A stretch of DNA of 37,792 nucleotides from a virus (lineage: Duplodnaviria > Heunggongvirae > Uroviricota > Caudoviricetes), in IMG/VR virus record IMGVR_UViG_2690316153_000015. The stretch is one strand, 5' to 3'. The notes under the pieces were generated by a model, which saw only the letters and a list, made by a program, of their open reading frames with translations, did not search any database and had not been told where the DNA came from. Below, piece by piece: positions 1,423 to 18,128 of this stretch (the stretch's first letter is position 1; each line of letters opens with the position of its first letter). The position numbers were made by a program, and so were the translations under genes.

Positions 1423-1537
1423 ATGTGATCTAAACTCCACTCTATTGGGTTACATGTAATACAAAACATTCAAATAGCCAAAATAAGCCTATATAAGTCA
1501 TTTTGGGCCATTTGGACGAATTAAGGAGATTACCACA
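1423..1537. promoter_or_regulatory. Lysis-lysogeny switch region with presumed divergent promoters for C-int and cox operons
   Basis: AT-rich 115-bp intergenic region between divergently oriented repressor and cox; position equivalent to the P2 Pc/Pe operator region; individual promoter elements not resolved. Confidence 0.4.
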
Positions 1538-1825: not shown

Positions 1826-1831
1826 TCATAA

Positions 1832-2508: not shown

Positions 2509-2518
2509 CAGGTGCTTT

Positions 2519-2797: not shown

Positions 2798-2808
2798 AGG
2801 ACGTTTCG

Positions 2809-3051
2809 ATGGGCAAAGAATATAAAACTCTCATTAACAAAGCACTTGAGCGTTTTTATTTTCGCTTAAGTGCATCAGGCGCGCATGCTGAACGTGCAGC
2901 CCGTGACTCATTGACCAGGGCAATCCGGAGTCTGTATGACGTGGCTTTTTACGCTGATGATCTGGATGCACTTAACGAACTTTCCGAGCTGATCTGTGCC
3001 GCAGAATGCGGGGAACATATTGAACCGTATAAGCTGGGGAATATCGCATGA
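2809..3051 (+). CDS. Hypothetical early protein
   Basis: 80-aa ORF, RBS-like GGACG upstream, start/stop packed with neighbours. Confidence 0.45.
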   Translation: MGKEYKTLINKALERFYFRLSASGAHAERAARDSLTRAIRSLYDVAFYADDLDALNELSELICAAECGEHIEPYKLGNIA

Positions 3052-3161
3052 GTATATTTATCTCATGGCTTGTTCTGATTATTTCGGTGGCCTGCGCCAT
3101 TGGGATTATGCGAATTATTAATTCAGTGAAAAAGATTGAACGCTTTTTCACTGGCGAATAA
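3048..3161 (+). CDS. Possible 37-aa hydrophobic peptide (MSIFISWLVLIISVACAIGIMRIINSVKKIERFFTGE)
   Basis: ATG overlaps the stop of the upstream ORF (ATGA); single TM-like segment; not in the supplied ORF track because it is under 60 aa. Confidence 0.3.
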   Translation: MSIFISWLVLIISVACAIGIMRIINSVKKIERFFTGE

Positions 3162-3247
3162 CAGCGCAAATAAAACCACAGGTTAAATAAGAAAATGTAA
3201 AAACAATCCGCATTCGCGGAGGTATTCACACACGCCAAGGAGGCGTA

Positions 3248-3451
3248 ATGGCAATTAAGCATTTTCCTGTCGTTCGTTTTACCTCCAGAGGACGTGAATA
3301 CGAAGTCGACGAACGCCTGATTACCACAATCGACAAACACCGTTCGGAAAAGGATGCACACCACATCTACCTCACTGACGGCACTTACTTCTGCGCCACC
3401 AACGTGGCGCGGGTGAATCTTATCCGACAAGTACAGGAGCCACGCAGATGA
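3248..3451 (+). CDS. Hypothetical early protein
   Basis: 67-aa ORF with GGAGG RBS upstream; stop overlaps next start. Confidence 0.5.
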   Translation: MAIKHFPVVRFTSRGREYEVDERLITTIDKHRSEKDAHHIYLTDGTYFCATNVARVNLIRQVQEPRR

Positions 3452-3714
3452 CCATTCTGGACTACATCGCTACCCATCCGGGTTGTAGCGGCGGAGAAAT
3501 CGCCGCAGCACTGAATACCCCAACCACAGCCATCAATGCTGAGTTACGCCGACTCTGGCGCGGCGGCTTAGTCATCAGAACAAACCGCAGCACAGGTGGT
3601 CGCGCTCGCAAAGCAGGAGGCCAAGCTTCTTACCACGTAAACCCGATGCCGTTCGGGTGTAGCAATCCACTTACTCACATGTTTAACCAGCTACTGAAGG
3701 AAACCAGAGCATGA
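3448..3714 (+). CDS. Hypothetical early protein, possible DNA-binding
   Basis: 88-aa ORF, translationally coupled to neighbours (ATGA overlaps). Confidence 0.5.
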   Translation: MTILDYIATHPGCSGGEIAAALNTPTTAINAELRRLWRGGLVIRTNRSTGGRARKAGGQASYHVNPMPFGCSNPLTHMFNQLLKETRA

Positions 3715-4010
3715 GCACCATCAATCACCAGAAGCTACGCGAACTGGCATTTGCCCTGCAACGAATGGCAACGCCTCAAAAATTACTGGTATTTCGCGCA
3801 ATGCTCTCGCCGTCTGCTGTGCTGGCACTGCTGGATGAGCTGGAGCACGCCAGAACCACGGCTCCTGCCATTCGTCTGACGCTCCATCATGAAATCGCTG
3901 ATTTCTGCGCGACGTTGAAGGCGCCAGGCGAACCGGAAACACCGGAAGCAATACAGCAAGAACTGCTGCAACGCATTGACAAGGTTTTTGATTTTTTTCT
4001 GAACCAGTAA
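3711..4010 (+). CDS. Hypothetical early protein
   Basis: 99-aa ORF, translationally coupled. Confidence 0.5.
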   Translation: MSTINHQKLRELAFALQRMATPQKLLVFRAMLSPSAVLALLDELEHARTTAPAIRLTLHHEIADFCATLKAPGEPETPEAIQQELLQRIDKVFDFFLNQ

Positions 4011-4132
4011 GAAACCAGAACATGCACACACAAAAAAACCGCTTGCCATGCCGCAATCAGTCAGGTTACATTTCCGCTGCACCTCACAAAACGGGTGTCG
4101 GGTTTCGCAGCCTGCTGACTACACAAGCGCAC

Positions 4133-4153
4133 AACCGCGCCAGCGGTTTTTTT
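4133..4153 (+). terminator. Putative intrinsic terminator (AACCGC-GCCA-GCGGTT followed by T7)
   Basis: Short GC hairpin followed by a run of T directly visible in sequence. Confidence 0.4.
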
Positions 4154-4332
4154 GTGCGTACTGTATTGCCACGTTTTTTTCGCGTCAGAATTATGGCGGG
4201 GCGTACGGGGCCGACTTCGGTCGGGCCGGGTTCTTGTGTAGCCGGTACTGCGAACCTCGTACGTCTCGCCACCCACAGTTTCGCAGCTCTGGATGGTGAG
4301 TTTTCACAACTTACTACACAAGGGGCCACACC

Positions 4333-4563
4333 ATGGCAAACCGCAAACCACACCGCGCTATCGCGGAGAGTCGTCACATCCAGACTGAAATCAACCGCAG
4401 ACTTTCCCGCGCATCACGCGTCGCGCAAATCATGCACATCAATATGCTGCATGAGCGCAGCCACGCACTATCAAACATTTATTCCGCCTCTGTTTTCAGC
4501 TATCTGGCGGATGATCTGCACGAGCTTCAACAGCTCATCCAGCAGCAAAACAAACTCCATTAA
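4333..4563 (+). CDS. Hypothetical protein
   Basis: 76-aa ORF preceded by GGGGCC...ACCATG; no recognisable motif. Confidence 0.4.
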   Translation: MANRKPHRAIAESRHIQTEINRRLSRASRVAQIMHINMLHERSHALSNIYSASVFSYLADDLHELQQLIQQQNKLH

Positions 4564-4635
4564 TTCCTGTTCCGGGCCTTTCCTGCACCTTGCGGCGGGA
4601 GGCCTTCGCACATCTGTAACAAGAGGATTGCCGCA

Positions 4636-5001
4636 ATGATTCTCGCCAACGACTTTCTTGAATACCTGCTCAACACAGAACGTGATCTTGCCGCTCGCGT
4701 GCGTGATCGTTATGACATGTACCTGAAATCCCTGCCTGTACCGCAGCTCGCTGACGGAAAGATTGTTATTGATGGTCGCTACATGATTGACAGCCACGAG
4801 GGAAATTACAGGCTTTACCGCATTGAAGGTGGCACCCCGTCCGTTATTGGCATTTACCAGCGCCCATCCTCTGCAATCGTCGATGTGATTGCCGACAGCA
4901 TCCGCATCACACATCGCCATGCCGACACAGAAGACACCGTGCTGGAAATTCAGCGGCTGGCTACAGTCTGCCGCGACACCCTGAATGGCATGACGAAGTA
5001 A
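4636..5001 (+). CDS. Hypothetical protein immediately upstream of A
   Basis: 121-aa ORF with AGAGGA RBS-like sequence; stop 7 nt before A start. Confidence 0.5.
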   Translation: MILANDFLEYLLNTERDLAARVRDRYDMYLKSLPVPQLADGKIVIDGRYMIDSHEGNYRLYRIEGGTPSVIGIYQRPSSAIVDVIADSIRITHRHADTEDTVLEIQRLATVCRDTLNGMTK

Positions 5002-5007
5002 ATCACT

Positions 5008-7830
5008 ATGACGGCAGAGTACATCAGGGACTGGCAACAACCGCGCCACGCAGTGGGGCGTGAAGGAACGGGGATCCCCGCTCCTGAATCCGCGCTTTCC
5101 TCCTGGCTGGATGCCTACCGGGCAGAGAACGAGCGCCGCCAGGAAATGGCTGATGCGGCGTTCTCCGCCACGCCGCTGGGCAACCTGATTAATAAAAGCC
5201 TGGACGCACAGGAAAAACAGGACAAAACCATCACACTGGCAGGAGACGCCAGAAAACAGGCACGTGGCGCGGTGGATGAAGCCATGGCCTCACTGCGCCT
5301 GCTGCCGTCCTATCTGCGCGATCCGCTTATTCGCCACCTCTCCTTCCTGCGCAAAAAACAGGAAGCCGATCGCCGGAAAGGCAAAAAGAGCTGGCAGGCT
5401 GAACGCTACGCGTGCGGAACCCTGCGCAAAATATTCGAACGTCTGGACCGCACCGACCACCGCTGGCTGACACCGGGTTATCGCTCCCTTGCCGGACGCG
5501 AACGCCTGGATGATTTGCTTTACCTGCCGCAGCTCAACAAACACCAGATACAGACGCTGGCCACCATGACGGCGGCGATGTTCAGCAGCACCTTCGAAAA
5601 ACTCTGCGATGGCTTTGGCGCGACTGATGGCGAGCTGACCATGGATGTAACGCTGAAGGCTTATCAGATGCTGGCCCGCATGGCGTTACACCTGCACGCC
5701 ATGCCTCCACATTATGACGCACTGACAACAGACAAAGACCGGAGGAACGAACCGGACACGGAGCTGCTGCCGGGCGCAATCCTTCGCCTGACCTGTGCGG
5801 AATGGTGGAAACGCAAACTGTGGCTGTTACGTTGTGAGTGGCGGGAAGAACAACTCCGCGCCGCCTGTCTGGTTTCCAGAAAAACATCCCCCTATCTGAG
5901 CCAGGACGCGTTAAGCGAGTTTCGCGCACAGCGCGAGAAAACGCGCGATTTCCTGAAAAGTTTCATGCTGGAAAATGAAGACGGGTTCACGATTGATCTC
6001 GAGACGGTGTATTACGCGGGAGTAAGTAACCCGGTTCACCGTAAGGCAGAAATGATGGCCACCATGAAGGGACTGGAACTTCTGGCCGAAGCCCGTGGCG
6101 ACAGAGCGGTGTTTCTGACCGTCACCTGCCCGTCAAAATACCACGCAACAACGGAGAACGGTCATCCGAACCCCAAATGGAACGGGGCCACCATGCGCGA
6201 CTCCAGCGATTACCTGGTTAACACGTTTTTTGCGGCGGTCCGCAAAAAACTGAACCGCGACGGCCTGCGCTGGTATGGCATCCGCACGGTGGAGCCTCAC
6301 CATGACGGCACTGTGCACTGGCATATGATGGTCTTTGCACATCCGGACGAGATTGAAACCATCGTGTCCCACGTCTGCGATATTGCCATTCAGGAGGACC
6401 GCCACGAGCTGGGCGATGACATAACTCCGCGTTTTAAGGCGGAGTATGTCGACGGCTCAAAAGGCACACCAACCAGCTACATCGCCACCTACATCGGAAA
6501 GAACCTGGACAGCCGCGCCGTGGATGGCATCGACCCGAAAACGGGCAAGCCACGCGTTGACCACGAAACAGGTAAATCAATGGCCGAGAGCGTGGAGCGC
6601 GCCATCGGCTGGGCGCGCCTTCACCGGGTCCGTCAGTTCCAGTTCTTTGGCATCCCCTCCCGTCAGGTGTGGCGTGAACTGCGCCGCCTTGCCAGCCAGA
6701 TGGCACGCAATCCGGAAGGCCCGCAACGGCTGAAAGATGATGCAATGGATGCGGTACTCGCTGCCGCCGATGCCGGGTGTTTTGCCACCTACATTGAAAA
6801 ACAGGGTGGCGTGCTTGTTCCACGCAAGGACTACCTGATTCGCACCGCCTACGACCTCGCAGATGAGCTGAACGATTACGGCGAACAGAGCGTACAGATT
6901 TACGGGATCTGGTCACCACTCATCGGGGAATCCTCCCGTGTGTGCACGCATCCGGATAACTGGAAGCTGGTAAGACGTAAACCAGAACCGGAAGACAACG
7001 CCCACGAAAATGGTTTTGACCTTCAGGGCGGCCCTGCCGCCCCTTGGACTCGTGGCAATAACTGTCCCCGTGTACAGGAAACAGGCAACAACGGGACAGA
7101 ACAGCCGGAAGAACGGCCAGCACCGTGGCCGCAGCTTCCTGACGGCGTTGAAGTAAATGAATGGATGCGCTCACTGAAACGGCACGAACGCCGGGCGCTG
7201 ATGCGTTCGCTTCGTGACAAACAGGCAAAAAACAGCAGCGATGAAATGCAGAACTGGACACAGAGCCGCAAACAGCAGCGGCCTTTGCCTGATAACCACG
7301 AGTTACTCGCTAAAGAATGGCGGGAGTCTGCTGAATCTCTCGGCCTGCATATCGGTGAACAACAGATGCAGCACCTGTTACGGGGCGGCAGTCTGTACGT
7401 TGACGGCAGCATCATTGCACCGCAGGGATTTGAAATTGTACGCAAACCGGATACCCGCCCGGACAGCCGAATCACGCAGCTCTGGCAGCGTCTGAGCCGT
7501 AATCATGGCGTAAGCAGCACGGAGATCCGCCATAACCCGGTCGCCAGCTATCTGGCACAGCTGGGGGCATCAGACCCTGAAGCCGCCGCACGCCTGGCAT
7601 CCACACTTCAGCAGGACCAGAACACCATGAAAACACCCGTTACCGTGCTTTCTGACATGCTGCGCGCCATCCGCGACGCAGAGCACGCACAGAGAATCAG
7701 TGAAACCACTGAACGCGCCAGCCGCAAAGCAGACCTGCTGCGGGGTGGCCTGACCAGTGGAAACAAAAAACAGACAGAAACGGGACTCACGAATCCCGTA
7801 AATGAGCAAAAAACGCGCAGCGATATATGA
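5008..7830 (+). CDS. A: Replication initiation endonuclease A (rolling-circle, HUH superfamily)
   Basis: 940-aa ORF; HUH-like motif TVHWHMMVF and paired tyrosines YIATYIGK typical of P2 gpA / phiX174 A-type initiators; position after the early operon. Confidence 0.9.
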   Translation: MTAEYIRDWQQPRHAVGREGTGIPAPESALSSWLDAYRAENERRQEMADAAFSATPLGNLINKSLDAQEKQDKTITLAGDARKQARGAVDEAMASLRLLPSYLRDPLIRHLSFLRKKQEADRRKGKKSWQAERYACGTLRKIFERLDRTDHRWLTPGYRSLAGRERLDDLLYLPQLNKHQIQTLATMTAAMFSSTFEKLCDGFGATDGELTMDVTLKAYQMLARMALHLHAMPPHYDALTTDKDRRNEPDTELLPGAILRLTCAEWWKRKLWLLRCEWREEQLRAACLVSRKTSPYLSQDALSEFRAQREKTRDFLKSFMLENEDGFTIDLETVYYAGVSNPVHRKAEMMATMKGLELLAEARGDRAVFLTVTCPSKYHATTENGHPNPKWNGATMRDSSDYLVNTFFAAVRKKLNRDGLRWYGIRTVEPHHDGTVHWHMMVFAHPDEIETIVSHVCDIAIQEDRHELGDDITPRFKAEYVDGSKGTPTSYIATYIGKNLDSRAVDGIDPKTGKPRVDHETGKSMAESVERAIGWARLHRVRQFQFFGIPSRQVWRELRRLASQMARNPEGPQRLKDDAMDAVLAAADAGCFATYIEKQGGVLVPRKDYLIRTAYDLADELNDYGEQSVQIYGIWSPLIGESSRVCTHPDNWKLVRRKPEPEDNAHENGFDLQGGPAAPWTRGNNCPRVQETGNNGTEQPEERPAPWPQLPDGVEVNEWMRSLKRHERRALMRSLRDKQAKNSSDEMQNWTQSRKQQRPLPDNHELLAKEWRESAESLGLHIGEQQMQHLLRGGSLYVDGSIIAPQGFEIVRKPDTRPDSRITQLWQRLSRNHGVSSTEIRHNPVASYLAQLGASDPEAAARLASTLQQDQNTMKTPVTVLSDMLRAIRDAEHAQRISETTERASRKADLLRGGLTSGNKKQTETGLTNPVNEQKTRSDI

Positions 7831-7877
7831 AGCGCGCACAAAACAGGCAAAAACGGGATTTCAGAATCCCGTAAACG
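7770..7877. repeat. Two 36-bp direct repeats, each containing the dyad ACGGGA-N8-TCCCGT, straddling the A stop codon upstream of parM (parC-like centromere/operator candidate)
   Basis: ACAGACAGAAACGGGACTCACGAATCCCGTAAATGA (7770-7805) versus ACAGGCAAAAACGGGATTTCAGAATCCCGTAAACGA (7842-7877). Confidence 0.55.
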
Positions 7878-7906
7878 ATTAATTAATCAACATAAGGAAA
7901 ACCGAC

Positions 7907-8866
7907 ATGAAAATTTACATCGACGACGGCTCCACCAACATCAAGCTGGCATGGACTGAGAACGGCGAACGCCGCAACGCCATCAGCCCGAACAGCTTCA
8001 AGTCGGAATGGTCTGCGCCGTTCGGTGGCTCGCAGCCTGCTAACTACATGCTTGATGGCGTGCGCTATGGTTTTGATCCGGTCAGCGATCGCTTTGTCCA
8101 GACGACCGACACGCAATACCAGTACAGCGATGTGAATGTCATTGCCATTCATCACGCGCTGGTCAAATCAGACATCACGCCACAGGAAGTGGATGTGGTT
8201 GTTACCCTGCCACTGAGCGAATATTTCGACACAAACGCACAGCCGGACCTGGCCAACATCAACCGCAAAAAAGCGAACGTCATGCGCCCGGTGGAGTACC
8301 AGAACGGCGAAGCATTCACTATCCGTAACGTACGGGTTATGCCTGAATCCATTCCAGCTGGCTTTAAAGCACTGGCTGACATGAGTCCGTTTGAATCCCT
8401 GCTGATTGTGGATTTAGGCGGAACCACGCTGGATGTGGCAAAGGTTCAAGGGCAACTGGCAGGTATCAGCCAGGTGTTTTGCGATCCACACGTAGGCGTT
8501 TCCCTGATGGCCGATGCCGTACTGTCGGTGATGGCCACTAACGGTATGCGCACCAGTCACCACATCGCCAATACCATTATCGAACATCGCAATGATGAAG
8601 CCTGGCTGCGCCAGCACATCCACAATGACGCGCATTACGCCAGCCTGATGGCGGTTATTCGTGAAAAGGAAGAAACACTGAAACAACGCGTGATCCGCGC
8701 GCTGGCGGTTTTTTCGGGTTACGGGCGGGTGATGGTTGTCGGTGGAGGGGCGGAGATTGTGGCACCCGCTATCCGCGAAGTCTGCGGAGTTAATGCGACT
8801 TTCATCGCGGACGGGGTGCCACAGTTTGCTCTGGTTAATGGGCTGTACGCAATGGACAAGGAGTAA
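7907..8866 (+). CDS. parM: Actin-like plasmid segregation ATPase ParM/StbA family
   Basis: N-terminus MKIYIDDGSTNIKLAW...ISPNSFK...YSDVNVIAIHHAL closely resembles plasmid R1 ParM as I recall it; phosphate-binding DLGGTT and VGGGA motifs; 319 aa. Confidence 0.85.
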   Translation: MKIYIDDGSTNIKLAWTENGERRNAISPNSFKSEWSAPFGGSQPANYMLDGVRYGFDPVSDRFVQTTDTQYQYSDVNVIAIHHALVKSDITPQEVDVVVTLPLSEYFDTNAQPDLANINRKKANVMRPVEYQNGEAFTIRNVRVMPESIPAGFKALADMSPFESLLIVDLGGTTLDVAKVQGQLAGISQVFCDPHVGVSLMADAVLSVMATNGMRTSHHIANTIIEHRNDEAWLRQHIHNDAHYASLMAVIREKEETLKQRVIRALAVFSGYGRVMVVGGGAEIVAPAIREVCGVNATFIADGVPQFALVNGLYAMDKE

Positions 8867-8869
8867 ACC

Positions 8870-9185
8870 AATGACGACACCAACCAGACGGATAAGTTTC
8901 TATCTGAAGCCCGCCGCCGTCAAGAGTGAACAGGAGGCGTGCAATTACCTCGATAGCCTGCCAGCCTCCGAACGCAGCCGCGCGCAACGCGCGGCCTTTC
9001 TGGCTGGGCTAGCGCTCATAAAGCGCAACCCAGCATTTGCCTACTGGATGGCCGAATGGCCAGAGGACAACCTCCCCTTCAATACCGTTAGCATCAAGGA
9101 AACATACCAGGATAATCAGCCTAGCGGAGTTGAATGCAATTTTTATAAAATAAAAAAGAATATTCAAACCTTATTCCCAGAATAA
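8870..9185 (+). CDS. parR: ParR-like centromere-binding adaptor (ribbon-helix-helix)
   Basis: Start ATG at 8870 with AAGGAG RBS; RRISFYLKP...LDSLPASERSRAQRAAFLAGLAL resembles R1 ParR (…LDSIPQGERSRLNRAALTAGLAL); the longer track ORF from 8736 would overlap parM. Confidence 0.7.
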
Positions 9186-9234
9186 TCTGATAATTGTATG
9201 TGAACTAATAAAATACAGACCAACACATCATTCT

Positions 9235-9257
9235 GGCACCCTTGCTAACAGGGTGCC
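9235..9257. terminator. Hairpin GGCACCC-N9-GGGTGCC between convergent parR and the cassette
   Basis: Perfect 7-bp inverted repeat in the 83-bp convergent intergenic gap. Confidence 0.35.
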
Positions 9258-9268
9258 AATGTTTCAAA

Positions 9269-10111
9269 TCATGATGAAATTGCCGAAGTTTTTTTATCGT
9301 GCTGAAGTACCGCAAATGCCATTAAAACCTCAAGAGAATAGCGGCGATAATACTTAACAAAACCATAATAAAATACTCGGGATGCAGCAATACAAAACAA
9401 GAGAAGAAAACAAAAAGGTAACAGCCTGATATTTATATCTATTAAAAAGGATAGAAGGAACAGGAACATAAGCAACCAGACTGAAGCGAGAAAAACAAAT
9501 GTAATGTTTCTACAAAAACCATACAAAGCAACATAGTTTTGCATTTTCACCTGATGATTTTTAGAATGTTCATACACATAATGATAAGCAAGGCGAAAAA
9601 GATCGCCCCTCAAGCCCTTACGTCGATATAGCGTAGATACAGAAAAAACATTTATATAACCATCTCGTATTTGCGGCCAAAAGACTTTAATAAGTATAGA
9701 ATGCAGTGTGGTTTTATGATGTTCTGCTTTATCAAAAGCTGATACAGGAAATAAAAAAACTCCACGGATAAAATTAACTATACTGAACTTAGTATTATGT
9801 CGTTTTATTTTCAGGGAGCTTCTTTTAGAAAACAGATAAATTGAAGGATACCCAAGTTTACTGTTCATGTATTTTTCAATTAAACAGGATGATAGAATAG
9901 ATATGAAGTGACCTGAAATATATGATAGAACGATTAATACCACATATATAAATACACTTATTATTTCTTTATATTTCAGGATATGGTTAAGAATACCTTC
10001 TATATAAACAGGGTTAATTTCAATAGAAAACAAAAAAAGGATAAACAGGAATAACCCACCTGGAATTAGATAGCCCAAAAAGTCATAAAATGAAAACGGA
10101 TTCTGTGTCAC
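9269..10111 (-). CDS. Multi-pass membrane protein, unknown function (cassette gene 2); GTG start
   Basis: 280-aa ORF; at least four long hydrophobic segments; very AT-rich codon usage unlike flanking phage genes; GGGGGA RBS before GTG. Confidence 0.65.
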   Translation of the reverse strand: MTQNPFSFYDFLGYLIPGGLFLFILFLFSIEINPVYIEGILNHILKYKEIISVFIYVVLIVLSYISGHFISILSSCLIEKYMNSKLGYPSIYLFSKRSSLKIKRHNTKFSIVNFIRGVFLFPVSAFDKAEHHKTTLHSILIKVFWPQIRDGYINVFSVSTLYRRKGLRGDLFRLAYHYVYEHSKNHQVKMQNYVALYGFCRNITFVFLASVWLLMFLFLLSFLIDINIRLLPFCFLLLFCIAASRVFYYGFVKYYRRYSLEVLMAFAVLQHDKKTSAISS

Positions 10112-10150
10112 ACTTCCCCCTGTGTTACTTGTAAATTAAAGGGTAAAACA

Positions 10151-10648
10151 TTATTTGTTTTTCCGTAAAGGATTAGCTTTCCATCTTCTTACTAACCATT
10201 CGAATTCTTGATATGTAGTATCCGAATTAATGCTTTCTCTGATTGCTTTAATTAATGGCTCGGCAATATCATATGTCTCTACAACTGTTGTGTAAGATGT
10301 TCTTTTTATCATTTTTTCATCATAAATACCTTCACGAATACTTACAGCAACTCGCTCGTAAAAATTTAAAATATATTGAAATTTTCGACGCTCGGCCATT
10401 TCTTCATCTGTTATTATGCAACCATCACAAGGAAAAACATAAGAACGAAATGATTTGCCTGAACGATGCACTTGTTTCAGGGTATGCAATGACTCTATAT
10501 ATTGCATATCTTGCCGACTCTCAAAAAGAAAGTTGGCCGTTTGAGTTTTTTTTGCGGTACGCACATTGTAGATAATGGTTCCAATGGCAACCAAAACGCC
10601 AAGCAGAACAATAGCATTGCTGATGATTTGTAGTGTTATTGGGTTCAT
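10151..10648 (-). CDS. Single-pass membrane-anchored protein, unknown function (cassette gene 1)
   Basis: 165-aa ORF; N-terminal TM segment ITLQIISNAIVLLGVLVAIGTIIY then ~135-aa soluble domain with CDGC motif; AT-rich; 39 bp upstream of gene 2. Confidence 0.65.
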   Translation of the reverse strand: MNPITLQIISNAIVLLGVLVAIGTIIYNVRTAKKTQTANFLFESRQDMQYIESLHTLKQVHRSGKSFRSYVFPCDGCIITDEEMAERRKFQYILNFYERVAVSIREGIYDEKMIKRTSYTTVVETYDIAEPLIKAIRESINSDTTYQEFEWLVRRWKANPLRKNK

Positions 10649-10663
10649 CCTATTTCATCCATA

Positions 10664-10690
10664 AAAAAGGCGGGGAGCAAATCCCCGCCT
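10664..10690 (-). terminator. Intrinsic terminator on minus strand (GGCGGGGA-TTTGC-TCCCCGCC then T6), ending 15 nt upstream of the cassette start codon
   Basis: Perfect 8-bp GC stem followed by a T-run when read on the minus strand. Confidence 0.55.
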
Positions 10691-10845
10691 CATTAGAGGT
10701 CAACGTAGCTTAGAAACCATCAAATTCATCATACATTTTTTTCATATCAACCCCCTCATAGAAATCATAACCACGTTTTGTGGTTTTTGTGACGCATAAA
10801 CTACATCAAAGGCAAGCCACGGTCAAATATATAGGCATGCTTACC

Positions 10846-10872
10846 TGCACAAAAGTGCACAAATTTGCACAA
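10846..10872. repeat. Three TGCACAA heptamers at 10-bp spacing in the portal-proximal noncoding region
   Basis: TGCACAAAAGTGCACAAATTTGCACAA read directly; helically phased. Confidence 0.5.
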
Positions 10873-11295
10873 TTTTTTTGAACGACTTTTTACCCTTCCG
10901 GCCCGCATGGCGGCTGGATCCGTCAAGGATCCGTGCGTGCACAAAAAACGCGTTTTTTCTGCGCGCAGGTGACGGGGGAACAGCCCGCGTTTCAGGGGGT
11001 AAATAGCATTCCCTGAACGATGTCGCAGAGATAGAACAGAATGGCTGTATTTCTCACGCTGAGCGTGAAAAAGACGTGAGGGCTTTTGATTTGATGGGGT
11101 GAAAGGTAAGGCCGTCAAAATCGCACTGAGACGGCGAGAACATGCAGTCAACGCGGTGGGATTGCGTAAGAGTCTGACTGTCGATGATGGCAATCAGCAG
11201 GAAAGCATCGTGAAATTATCTGACTGATACAGGAGCTGGAGAGTCGGGGCATAAATTTTTTATGCCCCGGCGAAGCAGCAGACAAGCGAAGCGCG

Positions 11296-12342
11296 TCAGG
11301 ATGTGGGCTGGGTGTCTAACAGTGCGTAAGGGTTAAAGCGGATCACCTCTTCGCCAAGCCAGTCATTGATGTGCTTCATGGCCTCCATGACGGGCATCAG
11401 CTCGTTAATTGCGTAAACCCGCGCGGCCTTCTCCACATCACCAAACGCACTTTTTTCGCCCGGCATCGCCCCCATCAGTTGCGGCGGAACGCGGTGCGCA
11501 GCCAGCACATCATCACGGGATGCCGCCTTAACATTCATGAACTCATCCTTTGCGGTGATCTGCTGGAACGGCAAAATTTGCACCCCTTCTTTGCCCCCGT
11601 TGGGCGCATGAATGAGCACGTTTTTAAATGCACCACCACCACGCGCACCCTGTAACGTTTCTTTCAGGGAGTCCATGCTTTCGCGGTTTACCTGCGCTGC
11701 ACCGATGTAGATGATGCACCCGGCGTGGGATCCGTTGTCGTAATACAGTTTTCTGAACATGTCCGCCGAATGAGAAAGGCTGGCCGAGAGTAATGCGCCA
11801 AGATATTCCGGCATGCCGTAGATTTCCTGGTTAATATCCGGATTCATCAGGTGGCACACTTTGCCAGGGCGAAACTGGAACGCGTCCTTGCCATCCTGCA
11901 CATACCACCATGATTCAAGATCGCTTCCGCGTCGCATGTATTTCGCCAGGGCGTGCCGTAATTTAAGCGGTTCGCCGAGCATATTGCTCCGAAGCTCAAG
12001 GAATGCGTTACCGAACACAAACCAGTCCAGCGCCAGCGCCGAGAAATCCTGCCGGGAAAGCAGCGGGTGCGGGATGTAGCACCCGAGCAATACATTACGC
12101 TTAAAGTAAAGCGCAGACTGATGCCAGGACGTTTGCCGGGCGGCTCTTGCCAGACCGTACCAGTCCACCGGGGTTTCATACCACCGCCCGTTATCAGCAC
12201 AGTACATATTGTCCAGCAGGTCATGCCCGGTCAGGCGATAAGGACCATCAAATGTGAATGCACTGAGCGATGATTCTTTCCTGAGCGCATCAGCGAGATC
12301 AATGCGTGAACTCATGCGCACTTTTTTATTTTTTCTGCTCAT
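11296..12342 (-). CDS. Q: Portal protein (P2 gpQ-like)
   Basis: 348-aa ORF adjacent to and co-oriented with the large terminase; position and size as in P2 Q. Confidence 0.85.
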   Translation of the reverse strand: MSRKNKKVRMSSRIDLADALRKESSLSAFTFDGPYRLTGHDLLDNMYCADNGRWYETPVDWYGLARAARQTSWHQSALYFKRNVLLGCYIPHPLLSRQDFSALALDWFVFGNAFLELRSNMLGEPLKLRHALAKYMRRGSDLESWWYVQDGKDAFQFRPGKVCHLMNPDINQEIYGMPEYLGALLSASLSHSADMFRKLYYDNGSHAGCIIYIGAAQVNRESMDSLKETLQGARGGGAFKNVLIHAPNGGKEGVQILPFQQITAKDEFMNVKAASRDDVLAAHRVPPQLMGAMPGEKSAFGDVEKAARVYAINELMPVMEAMKHINDWLGEEVIRFNPYALLDTQPTS

Positions 12343-14093
12343 CAGAACTCCATAACCGTAAAACGCTCGTTTTCCCCTTCGCCGCCAATCGGTTCGTTAA
12401 TGACAGCAAGCATGGTTGCCCACGCAAGGTCGCCGTGGCTGATCCCCCTCGCACGGTCCGTTTCGTAAGTGATAAAGCCGCCCGGTGTTTTCACCTTACG
12501 CACGGCGTTAAAGGCTGCGACCAGCTCGCGTTCGGCGCGATCATATTCCCACCGCCCGGCACGCATTATTTGCAGCATTTTCAGTACCAGCGACCGTTTT
12601 GATGACAGCGTGAAGGTGTACGGAATAGCAGCAGGGAAAAACCGTTTCACTATCTGATAAACAGCCTCCCCGTTCCCGCCCGTCACATCAATGCCGATGT
12701 GTTCCACGTTGTAGCGACACGTGAACTCTTCAATGACTCTGGCCTGTTCTTCAAACTCCAGCCCCTGAACGCGTCGCGTCTCCACCGTTCGAAAACGGCC
12801 TCCAGGAACAGCCGGAGGAACCACCACGGACACAGCGCCGCTGTCGCCGTTTCCACTGCTGCCGTTTGCGTCATACCCAATCCATACCGGACGATTTCCC
12901 ATCGGGCGGGGAGCAAAAGGTTTCCAGTCTTTCCAGTCGTCGTATCCGTCAACACCGCAGCCAATCAGGATATTCAGGTTAAATGCCGATTCCCCTTCGC
13001 GGACAAACTCACACATATAGAGATTGCGGAACTCGTCTTCGGTGTTTTCATCACGAATTTCGTCAATATCGGTGTGTTTCCAGCCGTGATTAACCACATC
13101 TTCCAGCGTGACAATTTGCCGCCACGTCCGGTCAGGGCAGATAAGCCCGTTATGCAGCGTTTTCCAGTCCACAGAAAAACGCTGGCGTTTATGCGTGGCC
13201 TTTTTCTCGTTCCAGCGGTCGCCATTCCAGTAGGCGTATGCCTCGTGCGTTTCGGTGGATGGCGTGGAGAAGTAGGTGCGCCGCAGTCCGCTGAGGGTTG
13301 CCATAGCGCCAGCCACCTTGCGCAGTTCAGCAAAGCGACTGACCCAGAAAAATTCATCAAAATAAAAATTGCCCGTGTAGGACTGTGCCGTCGCAGCAGA
13401 AGTACCAAGAAAATGCAGCTCTGCGCCGTTGGAGAGGATGATTTTATCGCCCCCTTTCAGCTCCACATCAACTTCAGCCGCAGCCTTCTGAATAATGCTT
13501 TTAAACTGGAACGCCTGACGACGCGACGCAGACAAAAAAATCTGGTTACGCTGGTAAGGTTGTGCCACATCGTCACGCAGCGCCATCAGCAGTGCTTCCT
13601 GTGCAAAATACCAGGTCGCCCCAATCTGTCGGGATTTCAGGATCATCCTGTTACGTATCCCGGCTTCCCTGCAAAGGGTCAGGGAGTCAAACCAGCCCCG
13701 CTGATGCCACTCCAGCCTGCTGATGATTTTTTCCCGCAGTGCGGCAATCTGTTCCGGCGTGAAATGATTTTTGAGTTTTTTCGCCCGGCCTTTCTTTCCT
13801 GCGGCCATCACATCCGGCTGGCCATCATGCAGCTTTTTAAGCTGCCGGGTCAGCAGGTCTATTTCCTTGAAGTCACCACCTGTTTTATTCTGTTTTTCAG
13901 TAAGCTGGATGAGGCGCGCATCGATGGACTGCGTGACACGCTGCACGGGTGGCGTTTCATCCCACTGGTCGCGTTTTTTCCACGCATAAATCGTGTTCGG
14001 GTTTATTCCCATCAGACGTGATATTTCTGCGGGCGGATAACCCTGCCAGTAAAGTTGCCGCGCACGCTGGCGCACAAAAGCGTCCTGAATCAT
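12342..14093 (-). CDS. P: Terminase large subunit (P2 gpP-like)
   Basis: 583-aa ORF; helicase-like ATPase region and C-terminal nuclease-like region; divergent from O-N-M capsid operon as in P2. Confidence 0.88.
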   Translation of the reverse strand: MIQDAFVRQRARQLYWQGYPPAEISRLMGINPNTIYAWKKRDQWDETPPVQRVTQSIDARLIQLTEKQNKTGGDFKEIDLLTRQLKKLHDGQPDVMAAGKKGRAKKLKNHFTPEQIAALREKIISRLEWHQRGWFDSLTLCREAGIRNRMILKSRQIGATWYFAQEALLMALRDDVAQPYQRNQIFLSASRRQAFQFKSIIQKAAAEVDVELKGGDKIILSNGAELHFLGTSAATAQSYTGNFYFDEFFWVSRFAELRKVAGAMATLSGLRRTYFSTPSTETHEAYAYWNGDRWNEKKATHKRQRFSVDWKTLHNGLICPDRTWRQIVTLEDVVNHGWKHTDIDEIRDENTEDEFRNLYMCEFVREGESAFNLNILIGCGVDGYDDWKDWKPFAPRPMGNRPVWIGYDANGSSGNGDSGAVSVVVPPAVPGGRFRTVETRRVQGLEFEEQARVIEEFTCRYNVEHIGIDVTGGNGEAVYQIVKRFFPAAIPYTFTLSSKRSLVLKMLQIMRAGRWEYDRAERELVAAFNAVRKVKTPGGFITYETDRARGISHGDLAWATMLAVINEPIGGEGENERFTVMEF

Positions 14094-14247
14094 TGCTCCC
14101 CCTGAGTAATTACAGGAAGATTACCCGCGCGCGAAACCGTTCTCCTTAACCCCCTGTTCTGACTGTTTTCTTACAACAAAAGCCCTTTGTATCAGCCTGT
14201 TACGCTTTGCCATCATGACTGAAGAACCAGTCAGAGGGGCAAAAACT

Positions 14248-15084
14248 ATGACTAATGAAAAAAAGACATCCCGCAAAAAGTTTCGCGTGGCTGTCTCCGG
14301 TGTGACGGCAGACGGGCGCGAAATCAACGGCGACATGCTGAAAGCTGCCGCCACCAGTTATAACCCGTCCGTTTATGGTGCACGTGTGAATATTGAGCAC
14401 ATCCTGTCACCACTCCCCGGTAGCGAGTTTTCCGCTATGGGCGATGTTGTGGGGTTGAGCACCGAAGACATAACCGATGGCCCGCTGGCAGGCCGCACGG
14501 CACTGTATGCCGAAATTGAGCCGACCGCTCGCATGATGTCCCTGCTTAACGATGGTAAAAAAATTTACTCCAGTATTGAGCTGGAACCACAGTCAACCAT
14601 CACGGGAGGCCCTTACCTGCGCGGGCTGGCAATGACCGACACCCCCGCCAGCCTGGGCACGGAACGTCTGGCCTTTGCGGCACAACAACGTATGCAACTG
14701 ATGACATTCAACTGTCAGCAGGGAGACGTGGCGATGTTCACCGCCGCTATGGAGTCAGAACTTATCGAACTCACCGAACAACGTCAGGAAGAAGGCACCC
14801 AGTGGTTTAACCGCGTTATGGGGATTATTGGCCGTGGCCGCAAAGCGGATGACGCCAGTTTCTCCCGTATTCAGGAAGCGGTGGAAGGTGTCGCAACGTC
14901 ACAGGCCGATATTATCGACCGTTTTAATGCACTGGAAACCCGCCATCAGCAGGACAGCCAGAAAATCACTTCGCTGACCACAGAGCTGACAGCACTGAAG
15001 GAAAAGCTGCGCACGCAGGACGGCGATCCGCAGAACCGGTTCACCGCAACGGGCGCAGCCTCCGACCAGCTGGCTGACTTCTGA
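14248..15084 (+). CDS. O: Capsid scaffold protein (P2 gpO-like)
   Basis: Start at ATG 14248 after GAGGGG; KKFRVAVSGVTADGREINGDML and GLAMTDTPASLGTE resemble P2 gpO. Confidence 0.85.
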   Translation: MTNEKKTSRKKFRVAVSGVTADGREINGDMLKAAATSYNPSVYGARVNIEHILSPLPGSEFSAMGDVVGLSTEDITDGPLAGRTALYAEIEPTARMMSLLNDGKKIYSSIELEPQSTITGGPYLRGLAMTDTPASLGTERLAFAAQQRMQLMTFNCQQGDVAMFTAAMESELIELTEQRQEEGTQWFNRVMGIIGRGRKADDASFSRIQEAVEGVATSQADIIDRFNALETRHQQDSQKITSLTTELTALKEKLRTQDGDPQNRFTATGAASDQLADF

Positions 15085-15107
15085 TAAGACAAAGGAGCAA
15101 ATTTTTT

Positions 15108-16160
15108 ATGAATCTGGTGATGTCAGATAATGCCCGTAACAAGCTGGGCTGCTACATGACGCGACAGGCGTCGATTAACAATATCCCGGTTTCTGGGCTG
15201 GTATCGCGATTTACCGTGGAACCCTCGGTGCAGCAGCGTTTTGAAAACGCCTCAAAGGATAGCACCGAACTTACAAAAAAAATTAACGTGATCGGTGTGA
15301 CCGACCAGAAAGGCGAAAAAGTCCTCATGGACACCACCGGGCCGATTGCGCGCACAAATACCAGTTATGACGGCACAGATCGCCGCAACCCGATTAACGC
15401 TGTCGACCTGAAGTCCCGTCAGTACCAGTGTGAGCAGGTGAACTACGACACGTTTATTTCGTATCCGCAGCTTGATGCCTGGGCGGCGCACAATGACTTC
15501 CAGACCCGCATCAGCGCACAGATTGCCCGACAGGTGGCGCTTGACCGCATCATGATCGGCTTTAACGGCACGTCACACGCGGAAAAATCCAACTTCAGCA
15601 CCAACAAGCTGCTTCAGGACGTTAACGTGGGGTGGCTGGAGCACATCAGAACCAATGCCAGCGCGCGCGTAATGAATGACGTGACGCTGACCTCCCGCAA
15701 CATGGACAACACCGTGGCGCACGCGGGTAAGTATGCGAACGCTGATGCACTGGTTCAGGACGCACGCTCATCCCTGCTGGATGAATGGCACAAGGAAGCT
15801 GACGACCTCGTGGTGATTATGGGGCGCAACCTGTTTAACTCGCTGCGTCTGCCCGTGCTGAACAGCATCAGCGGCCAGAATCCCAATGCGGAATTACTCG
15901 CCGGACAGCTCATCCTGTCATCGCGCACCATTGGCGGGCTGGGTGTGTTCCTTGCGCCGTTCTTCCCGGATGCAACGATGCTGATCACCTCGTTCAACAA
16001 CCTGTCGATTTACTGGCAGAAAGGTTCAATGCGTCGTCTGATGAAAGACGAGCCGGAATACAACCGCATCGCCACCTACCAGTCCATCAATGACGCTTAT
16101 GTCGTTGAAGACTATGGCAAGTGCGCGATGGTCACTGGCCTGAAGTTCGCCGACAGCTAA
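15108..16160 (+). CDS. N: Major capsid protein (P2 gpN-like)
   Basis: 350 aa; RFTVEPSVQQ, IMIGFNGTSHAEKS, YVVEDYG resemble P2 gpN; AAGGAG RBS. Confidence 0.9.
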   Translation: MNLVMSDNARNKLGCYMTRQASINNIPVSGLVSRFTVEPSVQQRFENASKDSTELTKKINVIGVTDQKGEKVLMDTTGPIARTNTSYDGTDRRNPINAVDLKSRQYQCEQVNYDTFISYPQLDAWAAHNDFQTRISAQIARQVALDRIMIGFNGTSHAEKSNFSTNKLLQDVNVGWLEHIRTNASARVMNDVTLTSRNMDNTVAHAGKYANADALVQDARSSLLDEWHKEADDLVVIMGRNLFNSLRLPVLNSISGQNPNAELLAGQLILSSRTIGGLGVFLAPFFPDATMLITSFNNLSIYWQKGSMRRLMKDEPEYNRIATYQSINDAYVVEDYGKCAMVTGLKFADS

Positions 16161-16205
16161 TCAACTCACGGCGGGCATCATGCCCGCCAGTAACGGAGAG
16201 AACAA

Positions 16206-17006
16206 ATGATTACTCCTGCACAGCAACACTGGCAGAACGTGATGGCACAGCGCGCAGGCCGGGCGAATGAAGGCGTGGACCACGCCGCGCGTACCGCGCA
16301 TGAAGAGGTGCTGTATCGTCTGCGTCTGGCACAGGCCCGGCTTAAGGGCGTACAGGCCAGAAGCGCGAAAGCCGCCATCAAAAAAGAGTTGTTGCCGGAT
16401 TTTTCCGGCTGGATTGAGGGAACGCTGGAGGCTGACGGCGGGCAGCAGGATGAAGTGATTGCCACGCTGATGGTGTGGGCGATTGACTGCGGCGATCTTC
16501 CGCTGGCGTTGCGTATTGGTGCGTATGTGGTCCGTCATAACCTCATTATGCCGGATAACTTTGGCCGTACTGCTGCCACAGTGCTGACCGAAGAAATCTG
16601 CAACCCGGTACTGACGCAGGCCGGGGCGGATGCCGACGCGGATTTGTCCGCCTTTATCGAACCACTGGACACCCTCCGGAAGATTGTCACCGACCAGGAC
16701 ATGCCGGACGAAGTACGCGCCAAATTATGCAAGGCGTGCGCCTTTGCCCGTCGTGGTCTGACCGATGCAGACAACATGGCCTTATCACTGAAGCTGCTGC
16801 GCGAAGCGATGCACCTGAACCCGAACGCAGGTGTGAAACGCGAGATTGCAACCCTTTCCCGCGCCCTGAAAAAAGCCGATTCCGCAGCCGCATCAGAAGA
16901 CGCCAGCGCACAGCAGGCGCAGGACGAAAGCAGCAAAAGTAAAAAGACAACGCGGAAGCCTGCAACACGAAAAACCACCGCGACGCAGAAGGCGAAGCGC
17001 GGTTAA
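16206..17006 (+). CDS. M: Terminase small (endonuclease) subunit (P2 gpM-like)
   Basis: 266-aa ORF following the capsid gene; Lys-rich C-terminal tail; synteny. Confidence 0.75.
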   Translation: MITPAQQHWQNVMAQRAGRANEGVDHAARTAHEEVLYRLRLAQARLKGVQARSAKAAIKKELLPDFSGWIEGTLEADGGQQDEVIATLMVWAIDCGDLPLALRIGAYVVRHNLIMPDNFGRTAATVLTEEICNPVLTQAGADADADLSAFIEPLDTLRKIVTDQDMPDEVRAKLCKACAFARRGLTDADNMALSLKLLREAMHLNPNAGVKREIATLSRALKKADSAAASEDASAQQAQDESSKSKKTTRKPATRKTTATQKAKRG

Positions 17007-17107
17007 CGACTGACCCCGTCAGCGGGCGGCGTGCGCGGTGTTCCGGTTTGACTCCGTGGCCGTTTACACCGCGCACCCACCGCCCGATTTTTTCAGGAGT
17101 GAATCCC

Positions 17108-17602
17108 ATGAGCATGGTTGCCAGAACCAACCCCGGCCCCGCAGAGGACGACATCACCGATACCGATGATGGTGATACCCGTATTTCAGCGGGTGCATTC
17201 TGGCCGGATATTGTGCTGCGTGAGCTGCGTCTGGCGATACGACTGCCGGGCCGTGTGACCACCTCCCGCCTGCTGCATACCGCCACCGGGGCCGTGGCAC
17301 ACGTTACCCGCGAGCTGGAAGCGTGGCAGCAGGAACAGCAGGCGGCTAGCCATCAGACGCTGGCCGATGTTCCGGCCCCCGTAATTAACGGAGAAAGCGT
17401 CAATCTCTGGCTCTGGCGCAATGCTGTTTATACCGCCACACGCGCCCTGATTCTGGAGCGTTACCGCGATGCGGACACAACGGACAAGGGCGACCGCCGG
17501 GCGGATGCACTGGATATACAGACATCGGATTTGTGGCGCGATGTGAGCTGGGCCATCTCTGACATTCTGTGCCGCCCGCGAATCTTTGCGGAGTTGTGCT
17601 GA
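17108..17602 (+). CDS. L: Capsid completion protein (P2 gpL-like)
   Basis: Probable start MSMVARTNPG at 17108 after AGGAGTG; synteny. Confidence 0.7.
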   Translation: MSMVARTNPGPAEDDITDTDDGDTRISAGAFWPDIVLRELRLAIRLPGRVTTSRLLHTATGAVAHVTRELEAWQQEQQAASHQTLADVPAPVINGESVNLWLWRNAVYTATRALILERYRDADTTDKGDRRADALDIQTSDLWRDVSWAISDILCRPRIFAELC

Positions 17603-17802
17603 TGAAAGTGAAGGCACTGGAAGGCGACACCGTGGATTCGCTCTGTTTCCGGTACTACGGCACGACGCAGGGCGTCACCGAAAAGGTGCTGGATGCCAAC
17701 CCCGGACTCTGTCAGCAGGTATTTCTGGACGCCGGGCAGGAAGTGGAGATGCCGGAGCCGGAGAAGAAGAAACGAGAAATGATTCAGTTGTGGGGGGAGT
17801 AG
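17602..17802 (+). CDS. X: Tail protein X (P2 gpX-like)
   Basis: MKVKALEGDTVDSLCFRYYGTTQGVTEKVLDANPGL resembles P2 gpX; start overlaps L stop. Confidence 0.75.
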   Translation: MKVKALEGDTVDSLCFRYYGTTQGVTEKVLDANPGLCQQVFLDAGQEVEMPEPEKKKREMIQLWGE

Positions 17803-17804
17803 CA

Positions 17805-18128
17805 GTGAGCACCATTCAAACAGGGATCACAGAGCAGGTTATTGCGTGGCTCTTTGACCACCTGCCAACGGTGTATGCAGTAGGCGCGGCGGTCAGCATT
17901 TCCGCGCTGATGAGTCTTTATGACGGACGAACACTGGTTCAGACCGTAACGGGATCGCTGGCGTGCGGCGTTCTGGCCATGGCCGTGGCCGGGTCGTTGC
18001 GCTTCTTCGGTTTTCCTGAAGATGCCGTGACGTTTATCGGCGCATCAATCGGTTTTATGGGCGCAGAGAAAGCACGCGACAAGGTTATTGCAGCCTTTAA
18101 TCGCAGGGTGAAGGAGAAGGACGAATGA
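17805..18128 (+). CDS. Putative holin (GTG start)
   Basis: 107-aa protein with two to three hydrophobic helices and a charged C-terminus; immediately upstream of the endolysin. Confidence 0.6.
   Translation: MSTIQTGITEQVIAWLFDHLPTVYAVGAAVSISALMSLYDGRTLVQTVTGSLACGVLAMAVAGSLRFFGFPEDAVTFIGASIGFMGAEKARDKVIAAFNRRVKEKDE

Follow-up and report, generated by a model that had tools for sequence, protein, structure and literature searches.

The window analyzed here, a stretch of DNA of 37,792 nucleotides, is a P88-like prophage (Xuanwuvirus, P2-related). The interval between its gene for a gpA-like replication protein and its gene for portal protein Q adjoins cos and is the interval described as a hotspot of defence genes in P2-like phages (PMC9122126). 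In the window, this interval contains plus-strand genes for ParM and a ParR-like protein and, on the minus strand, genes for a 165-residue protein of the DUF4760 family and a 280-residue membrane protein. The DUF4760 gene is preceded by a probable promoter, an unannotated micro-gene of 11 codons and an intrinsic terminator, in this order (Table 1).

Table 1. Features of the DUF4760 locus and its surroundings (positions in the window; minus-strand elements are read from high to low numbers).
Feature	Position	Strand	Description
gpA-like replication protein	5008-7830	+	Homologue of replication gene A
ParM	7907-8866	+	Followed by a ParR-like gene (+)
280-residue protein	9269-10111	-	Multi-pass membrane protein; weak Csx27 match (E = 1.9e-5); PHROG 12528
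DUF4760 gene	10151-10648	-	165 residues; N-terminal transmembrane helix and all-helical domain
Spacer ATGGATGAAATAGG	10649-10662	-	14 nucleotides; weak SD-like GGAnG; no room for a promoter
Intrinsic terminator	10663-10691	-	Core stem GGCGGGGA (10689-10682)/TCCCCGCC (10676-10669), extending to 10691/10667; loop TTTGC (10681-10677); T6 (10668-10663)
Anti-SD-like element TTGACCTCT	10695-10703	-	Can pair with the SD region of the micro-ORF (10757-10747)
Small hairpin enclosing the micro-ORF stop codon	10706-10719	-	10719-10715 pairs with 10710-10706; found by RNAalifold
Micro-gene (unannotated)	10710-10757	-	SD GAGGGGG (10757-10751), ATG at 10745, TAA (10712-10710)
5' leader stem-loop	10769-10785	-	AACCAC-aaaac-GTGGTT; minimum-free-energy and centroid folds
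Probable sigma-70 promoter	10798-10826	-	TTGACC (10826-10821), 17-nucleotide spacer, TAGTTT (10803-10798)
Portal Q	11296-12342	-	
Terminase P	12342-14093	-	

The original prediction described a perfect hairpin followed by TTTTTT and ending 15 nucleotides before the ATG of the 165-residue gene. The coordinates agree with this description: the core hairpin and T-run occupy positions 10689 to 10663 of the minus strand and, since 14 nucleotides separate T6 from the ATG (10648), the A of this codon is located 15 nucleotides past the last T. The full stem (GAGGCGGGGA/TCCCCGCCTT) comprises 10 pairs; the terminator consists of a stem of 8-10 bp with 7 GC pairs, a 5-nucleotide loop and six Ts. Folded alone, it has an energy of -19.4 kcal/mol (z = -4.3), and none of 200 shuffled sequences was as stable. 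The hairpin ranked first among the terminator-like sites of positions 1 to 20000 of the window, and the palindrome is present in a single copy in the window (chance expectation of 0.02). A T-run was absent from the plus strand at the hairpin, indicating that the terminator is unidirectional and has the same sense as the 165-residue gene. Searches of Rfam gave no match at the gathering threshold between positions 10600 and 10900, which leaves the leader without a family; sub-threshold matches to SorX and isrP in this region were caused by the terminator.

Loci encoding DUF4760 were gathered through the protein alone from contigs representing one genome per species (28 loci) and from IMG/VR (59 loci), and our counts are based on the 82 DUF4760 loci with enough upstream sequence. 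In nearly all members other than those of the Pasteurellaceae type, a GC-rich hairpin followed by T4 to T9 was found between the stop codon of the micro-ORF and the start codon of the DUF4760 gene. At least 12 distinct stem sequences, each with its T-run, occupy the equivalent position, including GGTGAGTC/GACTCACC, GCGGAGCC/GGCTCCGC, AGCTACCCGCC/GGCGGGTAGC, CGGGGCC/GGCCCCG and TCGGAGG/CCTCCGA. The hairpin of Citrobacter phage Shae_phiSM displays a compensatory change (GGCGGaGA/TCtCCGCC) and another loop in front of the same T-run. The helix was recovered by RNAalifold from 25 leaders. An explicit count revealed that 94.3% of the cells were paired and that both sides had changed in five of the seven pairs; none of 500 shuffles attained these values, and slid controls were 35-55% paired. 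The hairpin is retained in Morganella and Entomohabitans, in which the T-run is missing, and is absent from Pasteurellaceae, in which the stop codon of the micro-ORF overlaps the start codon of the DUF4760 gene (TAATG). Fold energy, comparison with shuffled sequences and conservation of both the pairing and the T-run thus bear out the identification of the hairpin as an intrinsic terminator and, by comparative criteria, this terminator is functional. The original prediction was also right in stating that no promoter could be accommodated between the hairpin and the ATG. Throughout the family, 0-21 nucleotides separate the T-run from the start codon of the DUF4760 gene, a gap too small for a promoter in every member. 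In addition, a generic scan and the alignment of homologues revealed no -35/-10 pair conserved across or 3' of the hairpin. The spacer in front of the DUF4760 gene contains a conserved element, ATGGATGAA.

The hairpin is ordinary in itself; its position is informative, since it exposes a micro-gene that has been retained alongside DUF4760 in several bacterial orders. This micro-gene encodes MKKMYDEFDGF in the window (SD and start codon arranged as GAGGGGG-N5-ATG) and MKKVFDEFDGF in Shae_phiSM. A micro-ORF was found upstream of the DUF4760 gene in 80 of the 82 loci, a set that spans Enterobacterales to Rhodobacterales and includes DUF4760 proteins with as little as approximately 30% identity. 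The two remaining loci were disrupted by insertions, one of which matches the IS421 insertion of E. coli MSI001. The peptides end in the consensus x-D-E-[FY]-[DE]-[GW]-[FV]-stop or in a clear variant of it, such as NEGWDGF in Pasteurellaceae, NEGWGG in Rhodovulum, and DEFEWV, DENDGF or IGGF elsewhere. Comparison of 30 distinct nucleotide versions showed that most of the variation in the last six codons falls at wobble positions (GAT/GAC, GAA/GAG, TTT/TTC and GGT/GGC); the amino acids specified by codons 2 to 5 vary freely. Synonymous variation of the DEFDGF codons indicates that selection acts on the peptide, as judged from the aligned sequences; the count of synonymous and non-synonymous changes is partly circular because the motif served to pick the ORFs, a circularity that does not affect the near-universal presence of the micro-ORF. 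Translation signals of the two genes differ in predicted strength, pairing of the SD with the 16S tail amounting to about -12 kcal/mol for the micro-ORF (median of -11.4) and to -3.1 kcal/mol for DUF4760. A second mini-ORF, ATGGATGAAATAGGATGA, which ends on the ATG of the DUF4760 gene, was rejected since, by eye, neither its frame nor its stop codon was conserved in relatives. For genome annotation, the lesson is that a terminator located just 5' of a start codon can signal a missed tiny gene rather than a missing promoter.

The original prediction had also considered that the true start codon or promoter might lie elsewhere. This did not hold for the start codon, which is fixed by an in-frame TGA (10657-10655) barring upstream extension of the ORF and by the alignment of the N-terminus of the protein with its homologues. 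It did hold for the promoter, since TTGACC-17-TAGTTT was found approximately 110-160 nucleotides upstream of the hairpin, thus making the terminator internal to the transcription unit of the cassette itself. In 14 diverged leaders, the only invariant blocks were TTGA(C) and TA...T, with a fixed spacing of 17 nucleotides. The -10 element is weak, matching at three of six positions, yet it is conserved; the low match accounts for the failure of the generic scan to detect this promoter. The candidate returned by the scan, GTCACA-18-TATGAT (10793-10764), was rejected because it was not conserved in homologues. In many relatives, a palindrome, ATTACC-N5-GGTAAT, covers the -10 element; it is degenerate in the window. 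Transcription is predicted to start at about 10791-10790 and the terminated RNA to be about 125 nucleotides long. The hairpin at the 5' end of the leader keeps its position in homologues, in which its sequences differ (GACTAC/GTAGTC, GACGACA/TGTCGTC and GTTTTCAT/ATGAAAAC). As a side observation, the positions that are invariant among the leaders are those that matter most for sigma-70.

The promoter, the micro-ORF and the terminator, together with their order and conservation, are established by sequence comparison, the RNA ends being predictions. We consider it likely that the hairpin acts both as the Rho-independent terminator of a tiny unannotated unit and as an attenuator that lies inside the operon and precedes the DUF4760 gene. 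According to this model, the sigma-70 promoter would initiate, at about 10791, an RNA bearing the 5' stem-loop, the strong Shine-Dalgarno sequence and the 11-codon ORF, and most transcripts would be halted at the T-run, yielding the RNA of about 125 nucleotides. Since no promoter follows the terminator, DUF4760 would be made only from read-through transcripts, which alone would also carry, in this lineage of E. coli, the gene for the 280-residue membrane protein. The ribosome-binding site of the DUF4760 gene is predicted to be weak, and the terminator combined with the difference in SD strength would bring production of the micropeptide far above that of DUF4760, a protein whose gene appears built for such low relative expression. 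The overlap of stop and start codons (TAATG) without a separate SD in Pasteurellaceae may be another route to less downstream product, similar in its effect. We infer partial termination at the T-run and, by analogy, a role of the terminator in dosage, the micropeptide being an antidote to, or a partner of, a membrane effector that may be harmful. Any role of the module in defence would likewise be an extrapolation.

Read-through could alternatively be set by translation of the micro-ORF, with DUF4760 being switched on when translation is disturbed, for instance by phage infection. We consider this unlikely, although it overlaps with the model proposed above and would refine it. The order of leader ORF and terminator is that of a classical attenuator, and two structures could report ribosome occupancy or stalling. 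The first is the helix formed by the SD region and the anti-SD-like element (10757-10747/10703-10695), which is present in the minimum-free-energy and centroid structures of the window and recurs in close relatives as duplexes of -10 to -18 kcal/mol. The second is the hairpin enclosing the stop codon (10719-10706), which covaries: in 25 leaders, 89.5% of its cells were paired and both sides changed in three of the five pairs, one position being CG in 12 leaders and UA in 7. Furthermore, the conserved residues of the peptide directly precede the stop codon, as they do in nascent-peptide sensors such as TnaC. Both the SD:anti-SD helix and the stop-codon hairpin could still add regulation. However, the SD:anti-SD duplex was absent from distant members and restricted to a close enterobacterial subgroup. 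No conserved antiterminator pairing was found for the 5' arm of the terminator: when the RNAs were cut off behind the loop, this arm paired with different partners in different loci, and RNAalifold detected no conserved alternative. The stop codon is separated from the stem by 17-21 nucleotides in close relatives and by 26-60 nucleotides in distant ones, distances that, given the footprint of a ribosome, place the stem beyond the reach of a terminating one. Tandem motifs (DEFEW-C-DEFDGF and DEFEGF-DEFDGF) and free-standing 8-codon copies favour a peptide acting in trans. In view of the lack of a conserved antiterminator and of the distance between the stop codon and the stem, we favour a constitutively leaky dosage terminator. 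The terminator nonetheless looks strong (10 bp, -19.4 kcal/mol, U6); constitutive leakage through it might be very low, and conditional antitermination is therefore conceivable.

A further possibility, raised in the original prediction, is that the cassette is expressed when the late Q/P transcript reads through into it across cos in the circular or prophage form. The hairpin would then end or insulate the late P-Q transcript, and expression of the cassette, coming mainly from this read-through, would be tied to induction or infection. Searches of the minus strand from the stop codon of Q (11296) to the cassette revealed no strong canonical terminator, the conserved hairpin located right after Q (11268-11246) being devoid of a T-run, and late transcripts could therefore reach position 10691. 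If so, the hairpin might also insulate DUF4760 from them. Comparison with related phages argues against late read-through as the mode of expression. Collinearity of the window with phages P88, 500465-2 and P88_4B11 extends from Q to three TTGTGCA repeats and is lost at about 10846, where homology to the P88-like backbone stops. The hairpin and approximately 195 nucleotides upstream of it are specific to the cassette, and the hairpin was absent from P88-like phages carrying other cassettes. The cassette is shared with Shae_phiSM (83% identity), and the content of the same gpA-gpQ junction differs among P88, 500465-2 and Shae_phiSM. [quoted passage not shown] Finally, the same layout, including a conserved promoter of its own, exists outside phages. 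In Enterobacter soli, the module stands alone between genes for a Trp/Tyr permease and an acetyltransferase, and in Rahnella it comes after the ast operon. Both copies retain the promoter, the micro-ORF and the terminator in the absence of nearby phage genes. By this comparison of sequences, the module is autonomous; its leader was detected in 299 of 5,426 complete E. coli genomes (about 5%), and a locus of 99-100% identity is present, for instance, in an ST131 strain. We therefore regard expression from the late transcript as improbable.

The promoter, the 5' hairpin, the micro-ORF and the terminator are also present, at 86% identity, on six plasmids of 46-49 kb that belong to E. coli, E. fergusonii and K. 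aerogenes and do not encode DUF4760. In this orphan version, which is a further point against dependence on a late phage transcript, the micro-ORF encodes MKKRYDEFDGF and the terminator is GGCGGG-ttggtt-GCCCGCC-T6. Homology to the plasmids ends directly past the T-run, indicating that a small functional unit has its 3' end at the hairpin. The micro-gene and its terminator could thus be seen as an independent mini-moron, next to which the DUF4760 gene would be silent or would depend on an unrecognised promoter overlapping the hairpin; DEFDGF micro-ORFs adjoining unrelated genes in other phages are compatible with this reading. It is nevertheless very improbable, since linkage of the micro-ORF to the DUF4760 gene persists across divergent proteins and bacterial orders, including cases of overlapping stop and start codons, the gap of 0-21 nucleotides is conserved, and a conserved -35/-10 pair is lacking across and 3' of the hairpin. 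Occurrence of DEFDGF micro-ORFs beside unrelated genes does imply that the peptide may act independently of DUF4760.

The reading of the palindrome as a DNA-level element (cos, or a target for recombination or insertion sequences) or as a chance hairpin, prompted by its position towards the cos-proximal end of a recombination hotspot and by the insertion of IS421 within it in E. coli MSI001, is effectively refuted by covariation, pairing being kept while the stem sequences differ, as well as by the conserved and strand-specific T-run and by the co-transfer of the palindrome with the module outside phages. A resemblance of GAGGCGGGGA to part of the 19-mer of P2 cos was dropped because this 19-mer was absent even when three mismatches were allowed.

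With its internal terminator, the module is close to several known systems. In operons of type III toxin-antitoxin (TA) systems, a Rho-independent terminator located between the antitoxin and the toxin modulates expression of the latter, limiting it relative to the upstream product (PMC5086642). Like these operons (ToxIN, AbiQ, TenpIN and CptIN), the module consists of one promoter, a short upstream element, a terminator and a promoterless effector gene; type III loci also occur in settings of phage defence and mobile elements. The resemblance concerns the architecture only, namely gene order and the lack of an intervening promoter. In place of tandem RNA repeats, none of which were found in the transcribed leader (the sole tandem repeat, 2.7 copies of TGCACAAAAG at 10846-10872, lies upstream of the promoter), the upstream element of the module is a translated ORF of 11 codons whose peptide is under selection. 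The DUF4760 protein is a membrane-anchored helical protein, in contrast to the endoribonucleases of the ToxN, AbiQ, CptN and TenpN families. With the leader-peptide attenuators of trp, his, pheA and pyrBI, the module shares the succession of a short, strongly SD-led leader ORF, a terminator and a structural gene. It differs from them by the lack of a conserved antiterminator, of a run of regulatory codons and of control by ribosome position, the leader stop codon being too far from the stem, and by a peptide that is conserved and also occurs free-standing. The third relative is the group of morons, such as old and tin, found in the gpA-gpQ hotspot of P2-like phages. Location, variable content, and possession of a promoter and a terminator are common to these morons and to the cassette; the terminator of the cassette precedes the main gene within the unit instead of closing it. 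Searches with PADLOC and NCBIfam did not assign DUF4760 to a known defence family. The combination 'DUF4760 + StbA + Plasmid_stab_B + ...' already appears in the catalogue of the P2 hotspot by Rousset et al. 2022 (PMC9122126), an article whose main text does not use the word 'terminator' (0 occurrences) and gives no sign of describing the micro-ORF or the terminator. The module is a variant of the known architecture in which a terminator separates two elements, with a micro-gene that was previously unannotated.

The DUF4760 protein of the window matches Pfam PF15956 (1.8e-34) and PHROG 2284, a group of unknown function. Sequence searches of PADLOC, NCBIfam and the PDB gave no match, and searches of the literature returned one incidental paper for 'DUF4760' and nothing relevant for 'DEFDGF'. 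The AlphaFold2 model (pLDDT of 92.6) comprises an N-terminal transmembrane helix and a helical domain. Top Foldseek matches to this model had non-significant E-values; the EDS1 EP-domain-like fold suggested by the model is a lead rather than a classification, and no bacterial homologues of the EP domain were found in the literature. Variants of the peptide did not covary with an internal DUF4760 motif, YQEFEWL. The gene for the 280-residue membrane protein is probably co-transcribed with the DUF4760 gene. It was rejected as a conserved partner of the module and is regarded as a lineage-specific add-on, since homologues downstream of DUF4760 were found solely in near-identical E. coli loci and not in Shae_phiSM.

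These features provide a testable hypothesis for an uncharacterised protein family located in a catalogued P2 defence hotspot. Tentatively, and with the odds against it, the locus may be a two-component, TA-like phage-defence module, in which a short-lived and abundant acidic peptide ending in ...DEFDGF-COOH would restrain an EDS1 EP-domain-like membrane effector, the terminator would set the excess of peptide, and free-standing M-x-DEFDGF peptides would be anti-defence antidotes. If so, the copies present in phiV10-like and T4-like coliphages and in phage-like plasmids would be anti-defence genes. Pseudo-ToxI of phage PhiTE and Dmd of T4 are examples of phage antidote mimics. The analogy is purely positional: the upstream element is found free-standing in phages or plasmids devoid of the effector. 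Free-standing phage copies of DEFDGF fit a role as antidote mimics, other roles being equally open. One possibility, based on analogy, is that the acidic peptide with its C-terminal Phe resembles the tail of SSB, the motif of which is DDDIPF (PMC5872125).

The wider distribution of the motif was examined by scanning IMG/VR for the exact DEFDGF-stop pattern, which was found in more than 120 stretches. Among the 81 matches that were examined, only 13 belonged to DUF4760 modules. About 48 were 8-codon M-x-DEFDGF ORFs, mostly near-identical copies of MHDEFDGF, in approximately ten distinct contexts as judged by eye. A family of DEFDGF peptides of 8-21 residues is thereby flagged in many coliphages; in the phage records that we inspected, the ORFs were unannotated. 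A search by tblastn of a phage collection with the 21-residue T4-like peptide gave no match. In phiV10/TL-2011b-like podophages, the DEFDGF micro-ORF is located directly upstream of the small terminase gene and, in a T4-like contig, between gp55 and gp47/46. Longer ORFs included the tandem DEFEW-C-DEFDGF, and a hairpin with a T-rich run was again present 3' of many DEFDGF ORFs.

DEFDGF-stop micro-ORFs, the motif encoded in the leader of the DUF4760 gene, are widespread in coliphage contigs devoid of DUF4760 (stretches L095-L174 of the comparison set). These micro-ORFs, which were absent from the annotation of the records inspected, mostly comprise 8 codons (M-x-DEFDGF), and some contain the motif in tandem. 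In phiV10/TL-2011b-like phages, the micro-ORF is located upstream of the small terminase gene, and in a T4-like contig it lies between gp55 and gp47/46.

The promoter, 5' hairpin, micro-ORF and terminator were also detected together, with 86% identity, on six non-mobilizable plasmids of 46-49 kb (matches H61-H66). The plasmid micro-ORFs encode MKKRYDEFDGF, and DUF4760 was not found anywhere on the plasmid. The ATG located right behind the T-run of the plasmid copy opens a candidate hydrophobic ORF of 33 codons, which is antisense to a second small ORF. In E. coli MSI001 (L094, about 2678-3900), the terminator hairpin is split by an insertion of IS421 (IS4 family), which parts the leader from DUF4760. 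A similar junction is present in stretch L039, in which the left arm of the hairpin is replaced.

Within the leader, a short hairpin surrounds the stop codon of the micro-ORF. The bases following the stop codon covary with the third (wobble) bases of the Asp and Gly codons (CG:12 vs UA:7). The YQEFEWL motif of DUF4760 loosely resembles the motif of the micropeptide (DEFEWV, DEFDGF), and comparison across loci revealed no covariation between the two.

In many relatives (e.g. L006, L008, L010, L043, and L053), a palindrome, ATTACC-N5-GGTAAT, overlaps the -10 element of the module promoter; the version present in the window is degenerate. Repeated copies of the same palindrome follow the MHDEFDGF micro-ORF of phiV10-like phages (L103, about 12540-12590), and a second palindrome, GTGACATGTCAC, accompanies several of the orphan micro-ORFs. 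Both palindromes may be operators for a regulator.

In P88-like phages, three TTGTGCA repeats located ca. 20-50 nt upstream of the -35 element of the module mark exactly where the backbone gives way to the hotspot, the gpA-gpQ interval beside cos. On the backbone side, the hairpin following the portal gene Q, which has no T-run, is identical in all five aligned phages except 500465-2, where one C is missing from the 3' arm. This hairpin and the AAAAAACGCGTTTTTT palindrome are candidates for the 3' end of the late transcript or for terminase/cos binding.

Positions of the features in the window and in the stretches used for comparison
Feature	Location	Strand	Context
280-aa multi-pass membrane protein	window 9269-10111	-	downstream of DUF4760
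DUF4760 motif YQEFEWL (residues 146-152)	window 10190-10210	-	near-invariant, internal
5-bp hairpin	window 10706-10719	-	around micro-ORF stop codon
Three TTGTGCA repeats	window 10846-10872; also upstream regions of L005-L062		
16-nt palindrome AAAAAACGCGTTTTTT	window 10943-10958	-	conserved cos-side backbone
Perfect 10-bp hairpin GGGGCATAAA-AAA-TTTATGCCCC	window 11246-11268	-	directly behind Q stop codon
ParM and ParR-like Plasmid_stab_B gene	window 7907-9185	+	adjoining hotspot, inside prophage
Leader copy	L092 2440-2625		plasmid pMS21199B
DEFDGF micro-ORF, example	L103 12616-12642	-	
DEFDGF micro-ORF, example	L110 5319-5345		
DEFDGF micro-ORF, example	L128 10678-10743		

The 280-aa membrane protein of the cassette, which is limited to the E. 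coli lineage, matches PHROG 12528 and displays a weak PADLOC match (E = 1.9e-5) to Csx27, an accessory protein of type VI-B CRISPR systems.

Elsewhere in this P2-related prophage, adjoining matches above the Rfam gathering thresholds to isrK (61.9 bits) and to the C4 antisense RNA (83.2 bits) at 4079-4276 (+) constitute an immunity RNA pair of the P1/P7 type. The ParM protein harbors the domains StbA_N and ParM (E = 1e-80). The presence of this plasmid-type partition system, with its ParR-like partner, suggests that the prophage lives as a phage-plasmid or retains a vestige of that lifestyle.
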